This document shows positions 21,276 to 30,632 of a DNA stretch of 30,633 nucleotides, one piece after another. The notes below the pieces were generated by a model, which saw nothing but the letters and a program-made list of their open reading frames with translations, did not search any database and had not been told where the DNA came from. Source of the DNA: an uncultured Candidatus Saccharibacteria bacterium (GTDB lineage Bacteria; Patescibacteriota; Minisyncoccia; Phycocordibacterales; SBAW01). The position numbers and the translations under genes were made by a program. The stretch is taken from assembly GCA_964641145.1 (NCBI GenBank), contig CAZXKI010000001.1:1-30633 (forward strand), read 5' to 3'. Positions within the stretch are counted from its first letter, which is position 1; every line of letters begins with the position of its first letter.

Positions 21276-22913
21276 TCACAAAAATTTCATTTTAAAACGC
21301 TCCTTGTGAAGAGTGACTGAAATCTGGCGCAACATGTCTTCGGCCACCCGATCTTCGGTAGTATGTTCGCCCAATTCTGCCTCAAATCTAAAGCGCAGCG
21401 TTTCTGCCTGCGGTTTAAGCCGCTCCGTAAGTGACGCAACTTCCCCCTCACCCATTACCTCAACCAGTTTGGCGTATATGTCCGACTGAGGACCAAAATG
21501 GAAGATAAGCATGCCGGCTTTGCGCTCAAGAGGCATAAGCGCAGTATCTTCGAGAGCCTGCACCTTCACTTCAGGCTCTTCAGACACCTCGCGTAACACC
21601 GGGTGTTTAGCGACTTCTGCAATCACAGCTGCCTCTGGCACCCGCAAACGCTCTGCAACAATCCGCGCAAAGTGCGCCTGCTCTATCTTGCTGCCCATGG
21701 CGGATATGAGCGGAAGTATGCTGGCCTCTACCAAACGCTGGTAGGCTCGCTCGTCTTTAGCTTGCGGCTTAAGTGCATCTAGAAAGAATTCAACTGCGGT
21801 CTTACTGGTGCGCACCGCAGCTTTAAGAAGTTCTGGATTCTCGCGCGCCACATCGGCAGGGTCTTTACCCTCGGGGAATACCGGTACCTTTACCTCAAAC
21901 CCTGCACTAAAAGCCATTAACGCGCTTTTAAGCCCACTGCGCACGCCGGCCTGGTCGGCATCGAGTGCAAGCACCAGGCGCTTAGAAAGCCGCCCCAAAA
22001 GCGACAGATGTTCAACCGTAAGCGCGGTACCCGAAAGCGCAACGGTAAAATGCAGGCCGGACTGATGTGCCAGGATAAGGTCAAACTGCCCTTCTACCAA
22101 CAAAATGCAGTCGAGTTTACGGATAACTCCTCGCGTCACGGCCTGCCTGCCGGCAGGCAGGTCGAGACCATACAATGTCTTAGACTTTTTAAACAACAAG
22201 GTCTCAGGAGAGTTAACATACTTGGCCGGCTCGGTGTCATCTTTCTGGCCAGGCACTTTTTCAAAAAACCTGCCCGAAACCGCAATAGGATGACCTGCAT
22301 TGTCGAAGATGGGGAACATAATACGCCCCCGAAAACGGTCAAATATGTCTCCCGGCTTTTTCTCTGACTTTACGGCAAATCCCGCATCAACAATGTCGTC
22401 CTTACTAAAACCCTGCCCCACCAAGTGTTTTGATAACTCTTCCCATGCGGCAGGCGCATACCCTAAGCGCCACTGCGAAGCAGTTTCTGGGAGCACGCCA
22501 CGAGTGTGCAAATATTCCTGCACATCTGTACGCTCGACAAGACGGGCTTCAAAAAACGTTACCGCAGCATCAGTTACCTGCCGCAAGCGTTCTTCTTTAT
22601 CTTTTTTCTCGGGGTCGGGAGCTGTTGTGCGCTCAAGTTTGACCCCCGCCTTCTCTGCCAGCTGGCGAAGCACAGTCGGGAAATCACTCCCCTCTATCTT
22701 TTGCACAAAACTAAAAATATCGCCACGCTCACCGCAGCCAAAGCACATGTAGGTGCCGCGCTCGGGGCTTAGATGAAAGCTGGGCGTCTTTTCTTTATGA
22801 AAGGGGCAGCGCGCCGTGTAGTTGCGGCCCGCCTTTTTGAGTTGAACGTATTGCCCCACTATATCCACAATAGAAAGTCGGTCTTTAATCTTTTCTACAT
22901 CACCGGAAGCCAT
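21276..22913 (-). CDS. dnaG: DNA primase
   Basis: Zn-finger CPFH...CFGC, FRGRIMFPI, KYVNSPET, TOPRIM VEGQFD and LALDADQAG, and GKDPAD. Directly upstream of rpoD. Confidence 0.97.
   Translation of the reverse strand: MASGDVEKIKDRLSIVDIVGQYVQLKKAGRNYTARCPFHKEKTPSFHLSPERGTYMCFGCGERGDIFSFVQKIEGSDFPTVLRQLAEKAGVKLERTTAPDPEKKDKEERLRQVTDAAVTFFEARLVERTDVQEYLHTRGVLPETASQWRLGYAPAAWEELSKHLVGQGFSKDDIVDAGFAVKSEKKPGDIFDRFRGRIMFPIFDNAGHPIAVSGRFFEKVPGQKDDTEPAKYVNSPETLLFKKSKTLYGLDLPAGRQAVTRGVIRKLDCILLVEGQFDLILAHQSGLHFTVALSGTALTVEHLSLLGRLSKRLVLALDADQAGVRSGLKSALMAFSAGFEVKVPVFPEGKDPADVARENPELLKAAVRTSKTAVEFFLDALKPQAKDERAYQRLVEASILPLISAMGSKIEQAHFARIVAERLRVPEAAVIAEVAKHPVLREVSEEPEVKVQALEDTALMPLERKAGMLIFHFGPQSDIYAKLVEVMGEGEVASLTERLKPQAETLRFRFEAELGEHTTEDRVAEDMLRQISVTLHKERFKMKFL
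22142..22161. repeat. Perfect 20-bp palindrome CCTGCCTGCCGGCAGGCAGG inside dnaG
   Basis: Exact self-complementary sequence. Read in the dnaG frame it contributes LPAGRQ. Confidence 0.9.
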
Positions 22914-22955
22914 ACGTAACGGTTAGTGTAGCCCTCTTGCCTCCTTTTATCCACA

Positions 22956-22984
22956 TTGACAGGATTATGCCGTTTTAGTACACA
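22956..22984 (+). promoter_or_regulatory. Sigma70 promoter, leader copy A
   Basis: TTGACA, 17 nt, TACACA, then GAATAT and ATG. The same flanks occur in copy C. Confidence 0.65.
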
Positions 22985-22990
22985 GAATAT

Positions 22991-23142
22991 ATGAGCTACA
23001 TGTGCTGGACAACAAAGGCAACACGCAAAGTCACCCTCAACAGTGACGCACATGCGCCTATTGTCCAGCCGCGGTAGTTTGATCTCAACCAAACATGCAT
23101 CGAAACACCCCGGCTGAACAAAAGCCGGGTATTTGTTTCAGC
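22991..23142 (+). ncRNA. Putative structured leader RNA, copy A (contains a 28-codon uORF at 22991-23077)
   Basis: Long stem (GCTGGACAA 23004-23012 / TTGTCCAGC 23061-23069; AGGC/GCCT; GTCAC/GTGAC), then AGCCGCGG, GTTTGATCTC and a terminator hairpin. Colinear with 23908-24060. Confidence 0.55.
23102..23142. repeat. Repeat copy 1: terminator with overlapping alternative hairpin
   Basis: The 24-mer ACCCCGGCTGAACAAAAGCCGGGT (23107-23130) is identical to 24024-24047. Both copies are followed by TTTGTTTCAGC. Confidence 0.9.
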
Positions 23143-23185
23143 GCATAAGATAGTTCTTTTTAGGCGACCATAAAGGAGACTGGAG

Positions 23186-23467
23186 ATGGAAATCATCGAG
23201 CCGCCGCCGAGACTTAGGCTCGACAGCGTGCGCCCCTTGGTTGAGTACCTGCTTGAGCTGTCTCGCGACTGCAGCGACCGAAGGCTCACGTGGGATGAAG
23301 ATGCGCGTGCATGCGAGATCCTTCTCGAGCTTCCCGAGACCTCAAACGCCGCATACGTGCGCACTAAGATACTGCGCTACATCGACCCCGAGTGCCGGCC
23401 GTTTAGAACCTTGACCACCTGGTTCTGCATTGCCCGCACCATTGGAGACCTTCTTCGGAAGGGTTAG
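23186..23467 (+). CDS. 93-aa hypothetical protein
   Basis: AAAGGAG and GGAG SD sites before the ATG and a terminator right after the stop. No family recognised. Confidence 0.7.
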   Translation: MEIIEPPPRLRLDSVRPLVEYLLELSRDCSDRRLTWDEDARACEILLELPETSNAAYVRTKILRYIDPECRPFRTLTTWFCIARTIGDLLRKG

Positions 23468-23473
23468 GTACTT

Positions 23474-23503
23474 CCGGCGCCCTCACCAGGGCGCCGGGTT
23501 TCT
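23474..23503 (+). terminator. Intrinsic terminator
   Basis: 10-bp stem CCGGCGCCCT/AGGGCGCCGG with a CACC loop, followed by GTTTCT. Confidence 0.75.
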
Positions 23504-23510
23504 GTATGTA

Positions 23511-23539
23511 TTGACAATACACGTATTTGAGTGTATAAA
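23511..23539 (+). promoter_or_regulatory. Sigma70 promoter of the 73-aa gene
   Basis: TTGACA, 17 nt, TATAAA: close to consensus. Confidence 0.75.
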
Positions 23540-23580
23540 TAATTTGTACGTTCACCAGAAATAAAAGGGAGTTTCTACCC

Positions 23581-23802
23581 ATGTCTGACATGTCGGAACC
23601 CTTGCAGGAAGCAAAGCTGCTGCGCATGCCCCCTTTTGTCGCATACGTGGGACTGTTCGGAAACGCAGGGATGGCGAGTCTCTGTTTCGGCCTCTACACG
23701 CAGTCGCTCTGGTTCGGACTTGGTGTTCTTTCCGTTCTGACCATGATCATCACGCTGGTTTCGGTAGTCGCCGAGAGCATCGAGAAAGCACGGAGGAACT
23801 GA
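23581..23802 (+). CDS. 73-aa two-TM membrane protein
   Basis: AAAAGGGAG SD and two hydrophobic segments, with its own promoter and terminator. Confidence 0.7.
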   Translation: MSDMSEPLQEAKLLRMPPFVAYVGLFGNAGMASLCFGLYTQSLWFGLGVLSVLTMIITLVSVVAESIEKARRN

Positions 23803-23823
23803 GACAGAACGAGCGGCAACGCC

Positions 23824-23865
23824 AATCGGTGCGAGGGACAGACTCCCCCGCGCCGATTTCTTTTT
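23824..23865 (+). terminator. Intrinsic terminator
   Basis: AATCGGTGCG/CGCGCCGATT outer stem with an inner GGGA/TCCC pairing, followed by TCTTTTT. Confidence 0.7.
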
Positions 23866-23872
23866 ATATACA

Positions 23873-23901
23873 TTGACAGAAAGGTTCGTGCGGGTTATAG
23901 A
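23873..23901 (+). promoter_or_regulatory. Sigma70 promoter, leader copy C
   Basis: TTGACA, 17 nt, TATAGA, then GAATAT and ATG, the same spacing as copy A. Confidence 0.7.
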
Positions 23902-23907
23902 GAATAT

Positions 23908-24060
23908 ATGCGACACCATCGCGGACAGATGAATAGCTCTAAGTGCGCCACCCTCTGGGTCGGCTCTTTAGCTGTTTGTTTAGCCGCGGCTGTTTAATCT
24001 CCTTTCTCAAGATTGATTGAAAAACCCCGGCTGAACAAAAGCCGGGTCTTTTGTTTCAGC
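23908..24060 (+). ncRNA. Putative structured leader RNA, copy C (contains a 29-codon uORF at 23908-23997)
   Basis: Long stem (GGACAG/TTGTTT, AATAGCT/AGCTGTT, GCC-ACCC/GGGT-C-GGC), then AGCCGCGG, GTTTAATCTC and the shared terminator element. Confidence 0.55.
24019..24060. repeat. Repeat copy 2: terminator with overlapping alternative hairpin
   Basis: GAAAAACCCCGGCTGAACAAAAGCCGGGTCTTTTGTTTCAGC, near-identical to 23102-23142. Confidence 0.9.
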
Positions 24061-24090
24061 AAAACTGTTCTTTCACAAAGGGAGTGCGAA

Positions 24091-24741
24091 ATGACGCCTG
24101 TTTTTCTAGACCACCCTCAAAGCTCATCCTGTCTGCTGGTCATGGGCAAAGAGCATGCTGACTTGATCCACAGTCTGCAGAACGACCCAGAAACGCGACA
24201 GTATCTGACCCGCTATATTCCGGAGACGCACGCAGAGGTCATTGAGTGGATCGAGAAACACGACTCCAACAACATTGTGCTTACCGTTGCTACGAAACCG
24301 GATAAGACGCCCATAGGAACGATGGGCTTGCACCGGATTGACTGGAGGAACCGGCGCGCCACGACCGGCGCTGTCCTCTCTCTCGCGAGCTGCAACAAAG
24401 GGTACGGGAGCCACGCCAAGATGCTCCTCTTAGCCCACGCATTTCTGACGCTAGGGCTCAACAAAGTCGAGTCGCGGGCGCATGCCACAAACGAGCGGAG
24501 CATCGCCTATAGCAAAAAGTGCGGCTACGAAGAAGTTGCCAGGCTAAGAAGACACACCTTCCAAAACGGTGAGTGGATCGACGAAGTAATCTTGGAAGTG
24601 CACGCAAGTACGTGGAAACCGCTCTGGAAGCAATTCGAACAGGGCGAGTTCAACAAAAAGCCTACACCTGAACCCTTCCCTGGCCACTATGATGCGTGCA
24701 GCTTGGGCTGGGACGTCTGGCAAGACGGCTGCGGCAGATAA
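24091..24741 (+). CDS. GNAT N-acetyltransferase, RimJ/RimL family
   Basis: IGTMGL..IDW.NRRA..G, NKGYGS, AF..LGLNKV, NERSI....KCGY and LRRH motifs. AAAGGGAG SD before ATG 24091. Confidence 0.9.
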   Translation: MTPVFLDHPQSSSCLLVMGKEHADLIHSLQNDPETRQYLTRYIPETHAEVIEWIEKHDSNNIVLTVATKPDKTPIGTMGLHRIDWRNRRATTGAVLSLASCNKGYGSHAKMLLLAHAFLTLGLNKVESRAHATNERSIAYSKKCGYEEVARLRRHTFQNGEWIDEVILEVHASTWKPLWKQFEQGEFNKKPTPEPFPGHYDACSLGWDVWQDGCGR

Positions 24742-25043: not shown

Positions 25044-28000
25044 TTACTGCACTTCGGTCTTCTCTACTGCAGGTACTTCTACCTGGCGCGGAGAAAACTT
25101 GTGGATCAACTCCTGCTTTGGAGACCCCTTAAAGCCGGTACCAGCTGGGATCAAGCGGCCGATGATCACGTTCTCTTTCAAGCCTTCGAGCTTGTCCATA
25201 GCGCCACCAATCGATGCCTTGATGAGCATGCGGGTTGTGTTCTGGAACGACGCTGCAGAGAGGAAGCTTGCGCGAGAGAGCGACACATCAAGAATACCCA
25301 TGATGAGACCCTCGCCCTTTGCCGGCTCGCCGCCTGCGGCCTTAATGCGCTCGTTAGTTGCAGACAAGTCAGTCTCAGGGACCACGTCTCCTATAGAGTA
25401 CTCGGTGGTACCGATTACAGTGATCTTAACACGGCTGAACATCTGGCGAACGATCACTTCAAGGTGCTTGATCGAGATGTTGGCGCCCTGGAGTTCGTAG
25501 ATCTTCACGATTTCAGAGATGATGTATGCGAGAGTCTTCTCCTTGCCAGCGTACTTGAAGAGCTCGGTGAGGTCGGCTGAGCCGTCGGTCAAGAACTGAC
25601 CCTTCTCTACCTTGTCTCCTACTTTTACAAGCGCCACACGGCGGAAGTGCACTTCATACTCGATAGCGTCTTTGCCTTTCTTGCCAGCCTTCATGTGCTC
25701 GATATCCGGAGCGACAACAATGATCTTCTCTTTGCCGTCGTCTTTGATGTCGATCACTTCACCGCCAACCGTAGCAATAACTGCCGGGTTACGAGGTGCG
25801 CGGCGCTCAAAGATTTCTTCAACACGAGGGAGACCCTGCGTAATGTCGCCACCTACAGAAGCTGCACCGCCGGCGTGGAAGGTGCGCATAGTGAGCTGGG
25901 TGCCCGGCTCACCGATAGCCTGTGCTGCAACGGTGCCCACCGCCTCACCGAGCGCAACCGGCTTCATGGTGCCCAAGTCTGCGCCGTAGCACTTCTGACA
26001 AACGCCCTTAAATGACTTACATGCAACTGGAGAGCGAACATAGGCTGCCGGTACGCCGAGCTCTTCAATGCGCTTTGCGTCTGCGTGCGTAATGAAGTGG
26101 CCTTTCTTGTATTCAGTTTTGCCGTTTACCTCGATATCTTCTGCCAAGTAGCGGCCGCCGATATTCTGCGCGAGGAAGGTGCCGATACCAGAAGCTGATT
26201 CACGCGTAATAGTGAGACCGTCTTTGGTGCCGCAGTCTTCTTCAGTTACTACTACGTCCTGTGCTACGTCGAAGAGGCGGCGCGTGAGGTACCCTGCTTT
26301 TGCAGTGTTGAGCGCGGTGTCAGAGAGACCTTTGCGAGAGCCGTGGGTCGTAATGAAGTACTCAATCGGTGAGAGACCTTCTTTCATTGACTTCGTAATT
26401 GGGAACTCGATCGCCTCGCCAGTCGGAGAAGCAATGAGACCTTTCATACCAGCCATCTGAGTAACCTGAGCTACCGAACCGCGGGCACCAGACTTAAGCA
26501 TGTCTGAAACCGGGCCGTTAACCGCAAGAGTGCCGGGCATAAGCTTTTCTACCTCTGACTTAGCGCCGTGCCAGACTTCGATGTTCATGCGGTAACGCTC
26601 TTCCTCTGAAAGGAGGCCGTCGTGCCAGTGCTTCATGATTTCATCTGACTTCTGCTGAGCTGCAGCCACAATATCTGCCTTCTCTTTCGGAATCTTGATG
26701 TCGTCGAGCGACCAGGTAATACCTGACTGGGTGACGTAGCGGAAGCCGAACGTCTTAATGCGATCGAGAATTTCAGGAACCTTCTCAAGGCCGTAGCGGA
26801 CAATGAGGTCATCTACGAGTTTCGAGAGGCTCTTCTTATCAATTGGATAGTTTACGAATGGATAGTCACTTGGGAACACCGTGTTGAAGAGGAGGCGGCC
26901 CACCGTGGTCTCAAAGAGCTGACCACCGAACTGTGCGTACTTCTCCTTCTCTGACGGCATAACCTTGATCTTTGCTTGGAAGCCCACCACACCGTGGTCG
27001 TATGCAAGGATAGCGGCGTTCGGAGAGTGGAAGGCGCGACCTTCACCCTTCATGCCATCAACCTCTTTGGTCATCCAGTATGAGCCGAGCAAGATGTCGA
27101 GAAGCTTGGTTGCAATAACGGCTTCGCCGGAACCTGGCTTCAAGATGTTGCGGTGCGCAGCCATAATCTCGCGAGCCTCGGTCTGAGCCTCTGGAGAGAG
27201 CGGCACGTGTACGGCCATCTGGTCGCCGTCGAAGTCTGCGTTAAAGGCTGGACATACCATCGGGTGGAGCTGGATAGCATTGCCTTCGATCAGGATCGGC
27301 TGGAATGCCTGGATACCAAGGCGGTGCAAGGTAGGTGCGCGGTTAAGAAGCACATACTTGTCGCGGATGATCTCTTCGAGAATTGCCCACACCTCCGGCA
27401 CGCCTTCGTCGATAAGACGACCAGCGCCACGGATGTTGTATGCGAGCTCCTTCTCAAGCAGTTTACCGATCACGAATGGGCGGAAGAGTTCCAACGCCAT
27501 GTGCTTAGGCAGACCGCACTGGTTGAGCTTGAGTTCAGGACCAACCACGATTACCGAGCGGCCCGAGTAGTCTACGCGCTTACCAAGAAGGTTCTGGCGG
27601 AAGAGACCGTGCTTACCCTTGAGGTTGTCAGAAAGGGACTTGAGCGGACGAGTGCGAGCTTGAGTGGTTGCAGAGTATGCCGCACCGCCATGGCGGATTG
27701 AGTTGTCGATAAGGGCGTCCACTGCCTCCTGGAGAATGCGCTTCTCGTTGCGGAGAATCACGTCAGGTGCGGCAATTTCAATAAGCTTCTTCAAGCGATT
27801 GTTGCGGTTGATAACGCGGCGATAGAGGTCGTTGACGTCTGATGTCGCGTGGCGGCCACCGTCGAGCGCAACCATTGGGCGAAGTCCTGGTGGGATAACC
27901 GGAATGCGAGTAAGGAACATCCACTCTGGGCGTACATTTGCACGCACCATTGAGCGGAGTGTTGAGAGGCGCTTAGAAAGTTTTTCGCGCTCTGCAGCAC

Positions 28001-30632
28001 CGGCATCCTCAAGCGCAGCAGCTGTTTCTTCTACCATCTGCTTAAGGTCGAGACCTTTGCAGAGTTCGTGGATAGCTTCTGCACCAATGCCTGCCTCGAA
28101 CATAGCGCCGTACTTAATGGCGTAGCGGTGATAGCGAGGCTCGTCGAGCACTGCGCCAACATGAATAGCTTCGATGTCGCGTTTAGCTTCGAGGAAGAGT
28201 TCCTTCATCTTCTCCTTCGACTTCTCGTCTACCAAGTTCTTCATCTTGGTCTTGTATTCAACTTCAAGCTCGCCGACGATGCGCTCTTTTTCTGTCTTGT
28301 GCACCGTCGTTACGATGTAGCCGGCGAAGTACACCACTTTTTCAAGCTCACCGCCTGAGATACCAAGCACCATCGAAAGGCGCGACGGGATAGCGCGGAG
28401 GAACCATACGTGCGCAACCGGTACTGCAAGGTCTACGTGACCCATGCGCTCGCGGCGGACAATGGCACGGGTGATTTCCACACCGCACTTCTCGCAGGTA
28501 ATACCCTTGTAGCGGATGCCGCGGTATTTGCCGCAGTAACATTCGTAATCTTTTTCAGGACCAAAGATCTTTTCGTCAAAGAGTGAGTTCTTTTCTGGAC
28601 GCTGAGTGCGGTAGTTAATAGTTTCTGGTTTGGTTACCTCGCCGTGTGACCACTCGAGGATGCGCTCAGGCGAAGCTGGGCGGATGCGGACATTGTCGAA
28701 GTCGGCAACATCAGCGCCAGGAGTCTTGCGGAGTGCTGAGACGCGCTCAGAACCGCGCATAAGCTCGATGTCGAGTGCGAGACCGCGCAGGGTGTGCAAG
28801 AGCACGTTAAATGATGCCGGTGCGTAGTGGTGAGAAATGCGCTCGCCGCGAACAATCGCGTCAAAGGCAGCCGAGCGGCCCTGGATGTCGTCAGACTTAA
28901 TCGTGAGCATCTCGCGCAAGGTATACGCTGCGCCATAGCCAAGAAGCGCCCACACTTCCATTTCTCCGAAGCGCTGACCACCGCCCTGAGCTTTACCGCC
29001 CAAAGGCTGCTGGGTAATAAGCGAGTACGGTCCGATAGAGCGCATGTGGATCTTGTCCTCTACCATGTGGTGGAGCTTCAAGATGTACATGTAACCAACT
29101 GAGACGTCCTGTTCGAACTTCTCACCGGTGCGGCCATCGAAGAGCGTCATTTTGCCGCTCTCGTTAAAGCCTGCTTTCTTAAGCTCTTCGCGGATCTCTC
29201 CTTCGGTTGCGCCTGCAAACGGCGGGCAGATTGCCTGATAGTTAAGTGAGTTTGCAGCAAGACCAAGGTGGAGTTCCAAAATCTGACCGAGGTTCATGCG
29301 GCTTGGCACGCCGAGTGGAGTAAGGATCACGTCTACCGGGCGACCATCTGCCATGTATGGCATGTCTTCTTCAGGCAAGATGCGTGAGATAACACCCTTG
29401 TTGCCGTGACGGCCGGCGAGTTTGTCGCCTACTGATACCGCGCGGAGCTGTGCGATCTCAATGTGGATGCGCTTGATGATGCCCGACTCGAGGTTGTGGC
29501 CCGCTTCGCGAGAAAATACTTTAACGCCAATGATGCGGCCGCGCTTGCCGTTCTCCATGCGGAGTGAAGAGTCTTTAACATCGCGAGCCTTGTCGCCGAA
29601 GATCGAACGCAGAAGGCGCTCTTCTGGGGTCAGCTGAGTCTCGCCCTTTGGAGTGATCTTGCCGACAAGAATGTCGCCAGGACGCACTTCTGAGCCGACA
29701 CGGACAACGCCGTCTTCGTCCAAGTTGCGGAGCTTTGTTTCAGATACGTTCGGAATATCGTGGGTCGTCTCTTCCGGTCCGAGCTTAGTGTCACGGACGT
29801 TGCAGACAAACTCCTCAATGTGAATTGAAGAGAACTTAGAGTTTTTAACCATGCGCTCAGAGATAATGATGGCATCTTCGTAGTTGGCGCCAGACCAGCA
29901 CATAAATGCAACGAGACAGTTCTGACCAAGCGCAAGCTGGCCTTGGTCTGAGGTTGATGTGTCTGCAAGAAGATCGCCTTTCTTAACCTTGTCGCCTACT
30001 GAAACAGTCGGGCGCTGGTGAAGGGCGGTAAAGCCGTTAGTGCGAACAAAGTTTACGAGGCTGTAAGTAGTCTCTTTGCCCTTGGCATTCTTAACCTTTA
30101 CATGTTTGCCGTCGACAGCAGAAACTACTCCATCTTCGAGTGAGTAGTGGAGACGGCCAGTGTCTTTAGCAGCGCGCTCTTCGATACCTGTTGCCACAAG
30201 CGGAGCCTCAGGAACGATACATGGCGTAGACTGCTTCTGCATGTTCGAACCCATGAGAGAGCGGTTAGCGTCGTCGTGCTCAAGGAACGGAATCATCGAG
30301 GTTGCGATAGAAAATGGCTGCTCTGGCGCAACGTCTATATATTTAACGTCTTTGCGGGGAACACGGGTCGGGCCGCCGTTGAGGCGTACTTCTACCTGCT
30401 CATCAATAATGGAGCCGTCGTCTTTAAGAAGAACCCCTGCGTGAGCGATAGGCTCCTTCTCTTCCTCTGCAGCGTTCAAGTAGACAACCTCTTTGGTAAC
30501 CTTGCCGTCAACAACACGAGCATACGGAGTCTCGATCATGCCGAACTCGTTCAAACGGGCAAACTGCGCCAAACGCAAAATAAGACCGATGTTCGGACCT
30601 TCAGGAGTATGGATCGGACAGAGGCGGCCGTA
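25044..30632 (-). CDS. rpoBC: Fused RNA polymerase beta-beta' subunit (5' part lies beyond the window end)
   Basis: One open frame from 30632 to the stop at 25044. RpoB motifs ([53 protein letters not shown]) run into RpoC motifs ([18 protein letters not shown]...[32 protein letters not shown]-like [38 protein letters not shown]). Confidence 0.95.

Follow-up and report, generated by a model that had tools for sequence, protein, structure and literature searches.

The DNA analysed here, a stretch of 30,633 nt from an uncultured Candidatus Saccharibacteria bacterium (hereafter the window; contig 1 of an 806-kb, 118-contig assembly), contains two closely similar leader sequences between dnaG and a fused rpoB-rpoC gene. 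Each leader opens with a short upstream open reading frame (uORF) whose ATG falls where transcription is expected to begin, and each ends in a predicted intrinsic terminator ahead of a protein-coding gene. The locus raises the question of what a reading frame at the very 5′ end of a transcript does in front of a terminator. Our answer is that each leader quite probably acts as a ribosome-mediated transcription attenuator with a leaderless leader ORF, which would sense slowed translation in the manner of the mycobacterial whiB7 leader.

Both leaders lie on the plus strand, as do all of their parts given below. The promoter of leader 1 spans 22956–22984, with the −35 box TTGACA at 22956–22961, a 17-nt spacer and the −10 box TACACA at 22979–22984, and that of leader 2 spans 23873–23901, with TTGACA at 23873–23878, a spacer of the same length and TATAGA at 23896–23901. 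In both copies, 6 nt separate the −10 box from the ATG, which lies at 22991 and 23908, respectively. From these start codons run uORF 1 (P0001; 22991–23077, 28 codons and TAG) and uORF 2 (P0002; 23908–23997, 29 codons and TAA). The first-pass annotation of this DNA, which had suggested attenuation by a leaderless uORF, gave the 6-nt spacing, the coordinates and both translations exactly. The two leaders are paralogues with 79% identity over aligned columns and have in common the −35 box, the string AGAATATATG, the motif TTGT..AGCCGCGG..GTTT.A and an identical terminator. The window genome holds exactly these two copies.

Homologous leaders were found with sequence patterns and a covariance model. 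A BLAST search of the leader against 60 relatives returned a single homologue (G019). Six further leaders came from pattern scans that covered the family, one genome per species and metagenomes. The covariance model R1, built from regions 2–4 of the leader only (defined below) and without uORF information, added nine in the genus and 21 in 21 other genomes of the order, and one more leader was located in L034. The total is 39 leaders, 37 of which lie beyond the window, spread over about 34 genomes of this order. Among the 151 sampled genomes of the order, 23 matched, including the window genome and one match to a plain terminator. Weak matches in G103, G064, G023, G091, G003, G075, G076 and G042 and a second one in G156 were plain terminators that follow genes or lie within coding sequence, and were excluded. 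Matches to the reverse strand of the two leaders (23034–23127 and 23965–24044, minus strand) are artefacts, because the antiterminator is nearly self-complementary. Rfam 15 gave nothing at gathering score on the whole window, and at E-values up to 10 it gave nothing relevant on 22800–24300, the best matches within both leaders having E > 3. Full-text literature searches that combined Patescibacteria or candidate phyla radiation (CPR) with leaderless, attenuator, leader peptide or riboswitch found no such element.

Across the family, the start codon keeps its place relative to the promoter. When 38 leaders were aligned on their start codons, the upstream regions gave a promoter matrix with TTGACA at −35 to −30, TG at −15/−14 and TAtaaT at −12 to −7; 37 of the 38 have a pyrimidine at −1, and 37 have an A at +1. 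The start codon is located 5–9 nt (mode 6) past the −10 box in 39/39 leaders and 34–38 nt (mode 35) past the first −35 base in 38/38 leaders as well as in the second L034 leader. It is ATG everywhere except in G161, which has GTG, and a degenerate −35 box (TTCTCA) occurs in G203. We infer that the uORF start codon sits at the expected transcription start, i.e., that the uORF is leaderless; there would be no room for a Shine-Dalgarno site, since translation would begin at the predicted +1 itself. The coincidence of the sensory ORF start with the transcription start, the mark of a leaderless small ORF (sORF), is read here from comparative geometry. Genome-wide, the distance from TANNNT to the first ATG of ORFs with 100 or more codons peaks sharply at 6 nt (86 cases versus a background of ~19), which makes leaderless genes plausible in this organism. 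The corresponding count at 7 nt is 45, and a separate Shine-Dalgarno peak is found at 5–9 nt; leaderless and Shine-Dalgarno-led genes coexist, with ~100 leaderless candidates. The string AGAATATATG, which comprises the 6 nt before the start and the ATG (22985–22993 and 23902–23910), is identical in several leaders of the same genus, and the 6 nt differ in other leaders (AAAACT, TAGTTT and TGGAAT). This conservation exceeds the need of spacing and may reflect a discriminator or initial-transcribed-sequence effect.

The reading frame is kept together with its start. In 39/39 leaders, the uORF stays open for 24–53 codons and meets no stop ahead of region 2, the 3′ arm of a long hairpin described below. 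The frames other than that of the uORF were closed in 58 of 76 cases, and shuffled sequences gave a probability of an open frame of ~0.27 per leader. In the leaders that precede the gene family of the 93-amino-acid (aa) protein encoded behind leader 1 (L023, G065 and the second L034 leader), the frame is kept at 27–28 codons. The stop lies in or just past region 2 despite frame-shifting indels between close relatives, ~25–35 nt before the terminator 5′ arm and with three frames crossing region 2 (~30 leaders with the terminator correctly placed). In the window, the terminator stems begin at 23109 and 24026, and the stop ends 31 nt (copy 1) and 28 nt (copy 2) short of them. The conserved start position and the open frame are more than chance. 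The first-pass annotation had described the uORFs as spanning the long stem and stopping ~30 nt before the terminator and had proposed to look in homologous leaders for the +1 start and an open frame; the measured distances bear out the description, and all 39 leaders retain both features. We rejected the possibility that copy 1 had degenerated through a frameshift, as L034, L035 and the second L034 leader have the same frame ending in QPR-stop. Most relatives outside the window genus (L044–L050 and L066–L085) have uORFs of 34–53 codons, mostly 37–46, in which Ser is frequent as the final codon before the stop.

Each uORF spans a long imperfect hairpin (1:2) formed by region 1 as the 5′ arm and region 2 as the 3′ arm. 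In leader 1, this predicted anti-antiterminator occupies 22993–23080, and in leader 2 a single-sequence fold places it at 23912–23994. Its predicted folding energy (dG) is approximately −36 kcal/mol, with z-scores of −3.6 (copy 1) and −2.7 (copy 2) against shuffled sequences; for leader 2, dG is approximately −37 kcal/mol without the terminator and −35.6 kcal/mol for the hairpin region alone. Region 2 (TTGTCCAGCCGCGGTAGTTTGA at 23061–23082 in leader 1 and TTGTTTAGCCGCGGCTGTTTAA at 23976–23997 in leader 2) reads TGTTCAGCCGCGG..GTTTGA, and in leader 1 it contains the uORF stop and doubles as the hairpin 3′ arm and the antiterminator 5′ strand. RNAalifold, applied to the two copies and G019, predicted pairing of region 2 with region 3, which extends from the segment ATCGAA through the terminator 5′ arm and loop. 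Region 3 lies at 23100–23121 in leader 1, where the antiterminator 3′ strand is at the same time the terminator 5′ arm and loop, and at 24017–24038 in the fold of leader 2. The intrinsic terminators are located at 23109–23140 (stem-loop 23109–23129) and 24026–24057 (stem-loop 24026–24046), each with a T-rich tract after the stem-loop. In each leader, 1:2, 2:3 and 3:4 are predicted to be mutually exclusive pairings, with the ORF overlapping region 1; as folded here, the leader is the four-segment 1:2 / 2:3 / 3:4 design of classical attenuators. Across ~30 leaders (the last five were left out, and the G105 terminator was misplaced), dG ranges from −16 to −50 kcal/mol for hairpin 1:2, from −15 to −26 kcal/mol for the antiterminator and from −7 to −24 kcal/mol for the terminator; the stop-to-terminator distances given above have the same coverage.

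The antiterminator is the part of this design that the first-pass annotation did not contain, and it is accompanied by covariation. In copy 2, the change of GTTTGA to GTTTAA in region 2 is compensated by the change of ATCGAA to ATTGAA in region 3, and the stop is preserved (TGA to TAA). Over the 39 leaders, 92% of antiterminator cells were paired versus 33–49% when the 3′ partner was slid by 1–2 columns, counted on a model-fitted alignment of the 39 forward matches that leans towards the fitted structure. Several antiterminator pairs covary (GC/AU, CG/UA and UA/AU/GC), and region 2 changes in concert with both terminator arms. Examples of such sets of region 2, terminator 5′ arm and terminator 3′ arm are AGCCGCGG / CCCGGCT / AGCCGGG, AGTCGTGAT / ATCTCGACT / AGTCGAGAT and AGCTCGGAT / ATCCGAGCT / AGCTCGGAT. 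Region 1 likewise covaries with region 2: the arm sequences differ among homologues yet always pair. Hairpin 1:2 was judged from single-sequence folds, and RNAalifold on MAFFT alignments, which are not structure-aware, gave no consensus for it.

Selection on these leaders acts on the RNA rather than on the encoded peptide. The motif AGCCGCGG is read as (C)AG CCG CGG at 23067–23074 in copy 1 and as (TT)A GCC GCG G at 23982–23989 in copy 2, and across the family all three frames are used for the region-2 motif (TTC AGC CGT, TCA GCC GCG and CAG CCG CGG). Among six same-frame leaders of one genus, the variable sites per codon position numbered 8, 6 and 9 in one comparison and 4, 8 and 8 in another, with no third-position excess. 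A conserved micro-protein was rejected as an explanation, because a test of the uORF peptides for purifying selection was negative. The pooled uORF composition is unlike that of proteins (Cys 4.9-fold, Glu 0.18-fold), with enrichment of Cys, Asn, Met and His and with Asn at codon 9 in 27 of 38 leaders. The recurrent residues are attributable to RNA pairing with region 2; for example, Met8-Asn9 is ATGAATA, which pairs with the region-2 sequence TATTCA, and where region 2 is GTATACA, region 1 is TGTATAC. The comparison thus upholds the earlier proposals that the uORF is conserved in position and not in peptide and that the shared motif, read in different frames, is selected as RNA; it adds that selection also acts on the open frame and on where this frame starts and ends.

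The genes behind the terminators point to the kind of output such a switch would have. The putatively regulated gene 1 (23186–23467, plus strand) is a Shine-Dalgarno-led ORF for the 93-aa protein, which found no match in Pfam, NCBIfam, PADLOC, a PDB profile search or the ESM Atlas. Its family lies behind the leader in four loci (the window, L023, G065 and L034). The putatively regulated gene 2 (24091–24741, plus strand) encodes a 216-aa GNAT N-acetyltransferase (PF13302, Pfam E-value 3e-20) that in NCBIfam weakly resembles PseH, SpeG and antibiotic acetyltransferases, each time below the cut-off. A GNAT gene follows 18 of the 20 leaders in one set, and a twelve-helix MFS_1 transporter gene follows 8/8 leaders in another. 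The element is always directly upstream of a co-oriented gene, and in the window the gap of ~45–60 nt between terminator and gene contains only a Shine-Dalgarno site and no evident promoter. The GNAT and MFS genes would fit the kinds of gene whose expression is turned on by uORF attenuators when translation is stressed.

These features can be combined into the following mechanism. A 70S ribosome would load directly on the emerging 5′ end of a transcript whose first base would be the A of the ATG. If no ribosome loads, 1:2 would form, leaving 3:4 to form and transcription to stop. If a ribosome keeps pace with the polymerase, it would proceed through region 2 to the stop codon and block 2:3, so that 3:4 would again form and transcription would stop. 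A ribosome that has initiated and is then slowed or stalled within the first ~15–20 codons would instead hold region 1 open and leave region 2 free. The free region 2 would form the 2:3 antiterminator, no terminator would form, and transcription would read through into the GNAT or 93-aa gene or, in relatives, also into an MFS gene. The most likely signal is a general slowing of elongation, caused by ribosome-targeting compounds or by a shortage of charged tRNA, because no codon run or peptide motif is conserved. Since conservation extends to the open frame and the place where it ends, and no further, the peptide itself would not be what is sensed. The conserved start and frame together with the covarying antiterminator lend support to the first-pass suggestion of attenuation by a leaderless uORF that senses translation, and what has been added to it is the antiterminator, i.e., pairing of region 2, including AGCCGCGG and GTTTGA, with the terminator 5′ arm and loop, and the nature of the putatively regulated genes. 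With the antiterminator, the attenuation idea becomes mechanistically complete.

Several observations weigh against this mechanism. We infer the start site, the translation of the uORF, termination, the read-through state and the inducing signal from the DNA. The −10 hexamers of the window copies (TACACA and TATAGA) lack the usual T at position 6, and a strict sigma-70 consensus scan calls neither of the two leader promoters. In most relatives outside the genus, hairpin 1:2 folds as a three-way junction, Y-shaped, in which two apical hairpins occur along with a semi-conserved G.G..TTTTGC.GT, and this apical motif could be a ligand or protein binding site. In those relatives, the stop lies ~16 nt past the region-2 core, so that a terminating ribosome there would probably cover only part of the antiterminator strand. 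As for the output, the GNATs of the family are only weakly AAC(6′)/SpeG/PseH-like and the MFS_1 proteins are closest to the TetA(P), Tet(40) and HP1165 efflux pumps, both far below curated cut-offs, so that a role of the downstream genes in efflux or drug acetylation is suggested by resemblance and not by membership. A search of sequencing runs found the locus only in DNA runs of a bioreactor metagenome, and the sole putative RNA run covered only dnaG-side DNA of a relative.

The three-way junction with its semi-conserved motif, together with selection on RNA rather than peptide, would suit a riboswitch or a protein- or tRNA-binding leader, in which a ligand or protein would stabilise or destabilise hairpin 1:2 and thereby decide between antiterminator and terminator; the uORF would be secondary, serving perhaps just to keep the RNA open, or irrelevant. 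We regard such a leader as unlikely. Against it stand the missing Rfam match, even at E-values up to 10, and the form of the hairpin in the window copies and their genus, which is plain, long and strongly divergent in sequence with no shared pocket evident. It would also leave the +1 start codon, the open frame and the fixed distance between stop and terminator in 39/39 leaders unexplained. In an amino-acid-specific attenuator of the trp/his type, a shortage of one charged tRNA (Asn, Cys, His or Tyr as candidates) would stall the ribosome at defined codons, and the GNAT and MFS proteins would serve the metabolism or uptake of the compound. CPR bacteria rely on imported amino acids, and the enrichment of Cys, Asn, Met and His and the frequent Asn at codon 9 could be taken as traces of such a sensor; the whiB7 uORF, moreover, also answers amino-acid starvation (PMC10274678). 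However, none of the leaders contains a run of identical codons, the AAT at codon 9 is explained by RNA pairing with region 2, and the downstream genes are not biosynthetic, which makes amino-acid specificity quite unlikely.

The own promoter and the efficient-looking terminator of each leader would also be expected of a stand-alone small gene, with a ~150-nt terminated transcript acting as a small RNA or encoding a micro-protein and with an independent downstream gene. Attenuator RNAs and leader peptides that act in trans are known elsewhere, namely rnTrpL and peTrpL (PMC7298713). We consider an independent small gene very unlikely, since there is no evident promoter between the terminator and the downstream gene, the peptides are unconserved and unlike proteins, the covarying, conserved antiterminator would have no role, and the element is always found directly upstream of a co-oriented gene. 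Under the attenuation mechanism, a further role in trans is conceivable for the terminated leader RNA.

The nearest functional analogue of this family is the whiB7 leader of mycobacteria. There, efficient translation of a uORF leads to a Rho-independent terminator, and translation stress leads to an antiterminator and read-through; the uORF differs from species to species, and tap (MFS) and eis (GNAT) belong to the regulon (PMC10274678). The attenuation logic, the variable uORF and an output of GNAT and MFS proteins are common to both systems, whereas no sequence or structural homology is seen. whiB7 encodes a transcription factor that activates a regulon, whereas here each GNAT or MFS gene would have its own cis switch. 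The whiB7 uORF is enriched in Ala, a bias that the present uORFs do not show, and its start site is called distal, the word 'leaderless' being absent from the text searched, whereas the start codon of the present leaders coincides with the predicted +1. The bmrB-bmrCD system of Bacillus subtilis shows ribosome-mediated transcription attenuation of a drug transporter (PMC4191407). Like the present leaders, bmrB-bmrCD and the erm, msrD and hflXr leaders (PMC6310831; 10.1101/2021.11.29.470318) combine a leader ORF, alternative terminator and antiterminator structures and a transporter- or resistance-type gene. They differ in belonging to another phylum and having unrelated sequences, and induction by ribosome-targeting compounds is experimental there and proposed here. 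In bmrB-bmrCD and the erm, msrD and hflXr leaders, the leader ORFs are led by a Shine-Dalgarno site.

Leaderless sensors of a different kind are found in the polycysteine sORFs of mycobacteria (the 'Cys ribulon'), which exert translational control by sensing Cys via a poly-Cys tract (10.1101/834739). As is proposed for the family described here, a leaderless sORF at the 5′ end of the transcript is the sensor, and several unlinked loci have the same design. However, the Cys ribulon unmasks a downstream ribosome-binding site, whereas the present leaders have an antiterminator and an intrinsic terminator, the latter 45–60 nt before the Shine-Dalgarno site, and their uORFs contain no Cys run. The trp, his, leu, thr and phe attenuators have the same 1:2, 2:3 and 3:4 logic and a leader ORF that overlaps region 1. 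In contrast to them, the present uORFs have no codon runs, biosynthetic operon, Shine-Dalgarno site or Rfam leader match, and they traverse all of region 2, whereas classical leader ORFs stop before or at region 2. The family, as predicted here, joins a leaderless start to an intrinsic terminator plus antiterminator and places this switch in cis ahead of every effector gene; it shares the logic, not the sequences, of the known systems.

dnaG (21276–22913, minus strand) flanks the side of leader 1, and the fused rpoB-rpoC (25044–30632, minus strand) follows beyond the GNAT gene; the fusion carries the Pfam Rpb2 domains and then the Rpb1 domains in a single ORF, a frame of more than 1860 aa that extends past the window end. 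In L023, a complete 2285-aa rpoB-rpoC fusion adjoins the same leader and 93-aa gene. Between dnaG and rpoB-rpoC lie three plus-strand units: leader 1 with the 93-aa ORF, a 73-aa ORF, and leader 2 with the GNAT gene. The 73-aa ORF (23581–23802, plus strand) encodes a membrane-like protein and has its own canonical promoter and Shine-Dalgarno site; this unit (23512–23802, plus strand) has the promoter TTGACA, 17 nt, TATAAA, and it also has a terminator. L034 has the same trio in another order: leader and GNAT gene, promoter and small membrane protein (1626–1930), and leader and 93-aa gene. The reordered recurrence of the trio suggests that the GNAT, the small membrane protein and the 93-aa protein form a functionally linked module.

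To our knowledge, gene regulation in CPR bacteria (Patescibacteria), which are largely uncultured and have few recognisable regulators, is almost unknown. The element described here would join leaderless translation with classical terminator/antiterminator attenuation, two subjects usually studied apart. The family would also be a clean natural case of a uORF selected just for being translated, because the sensing ORF has no conserved peptide. The leaders mark the GNAT, MFS and 93-aa genes as a candidate stress-induced set and offer a handle on their function, and the switch itself is ~190 nt long, conserved and precisely delimited. It is conceivable, at somewhat less than an even chance in our estimation, that the CPR bacteria of this order run a regulator-free translation-stress regulon, in which unlinked GNAT, MFS and 93-aa genes each carry a leaderless-uORF attenuator and the ribosome is the sole sensor. 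If so, the set would be a cis-wired counterpart of the WhiB7 regulon and, within the literature searched, the first Patescibacteria-specific family of switches made of a cis-regulatory RNA and a peptide.

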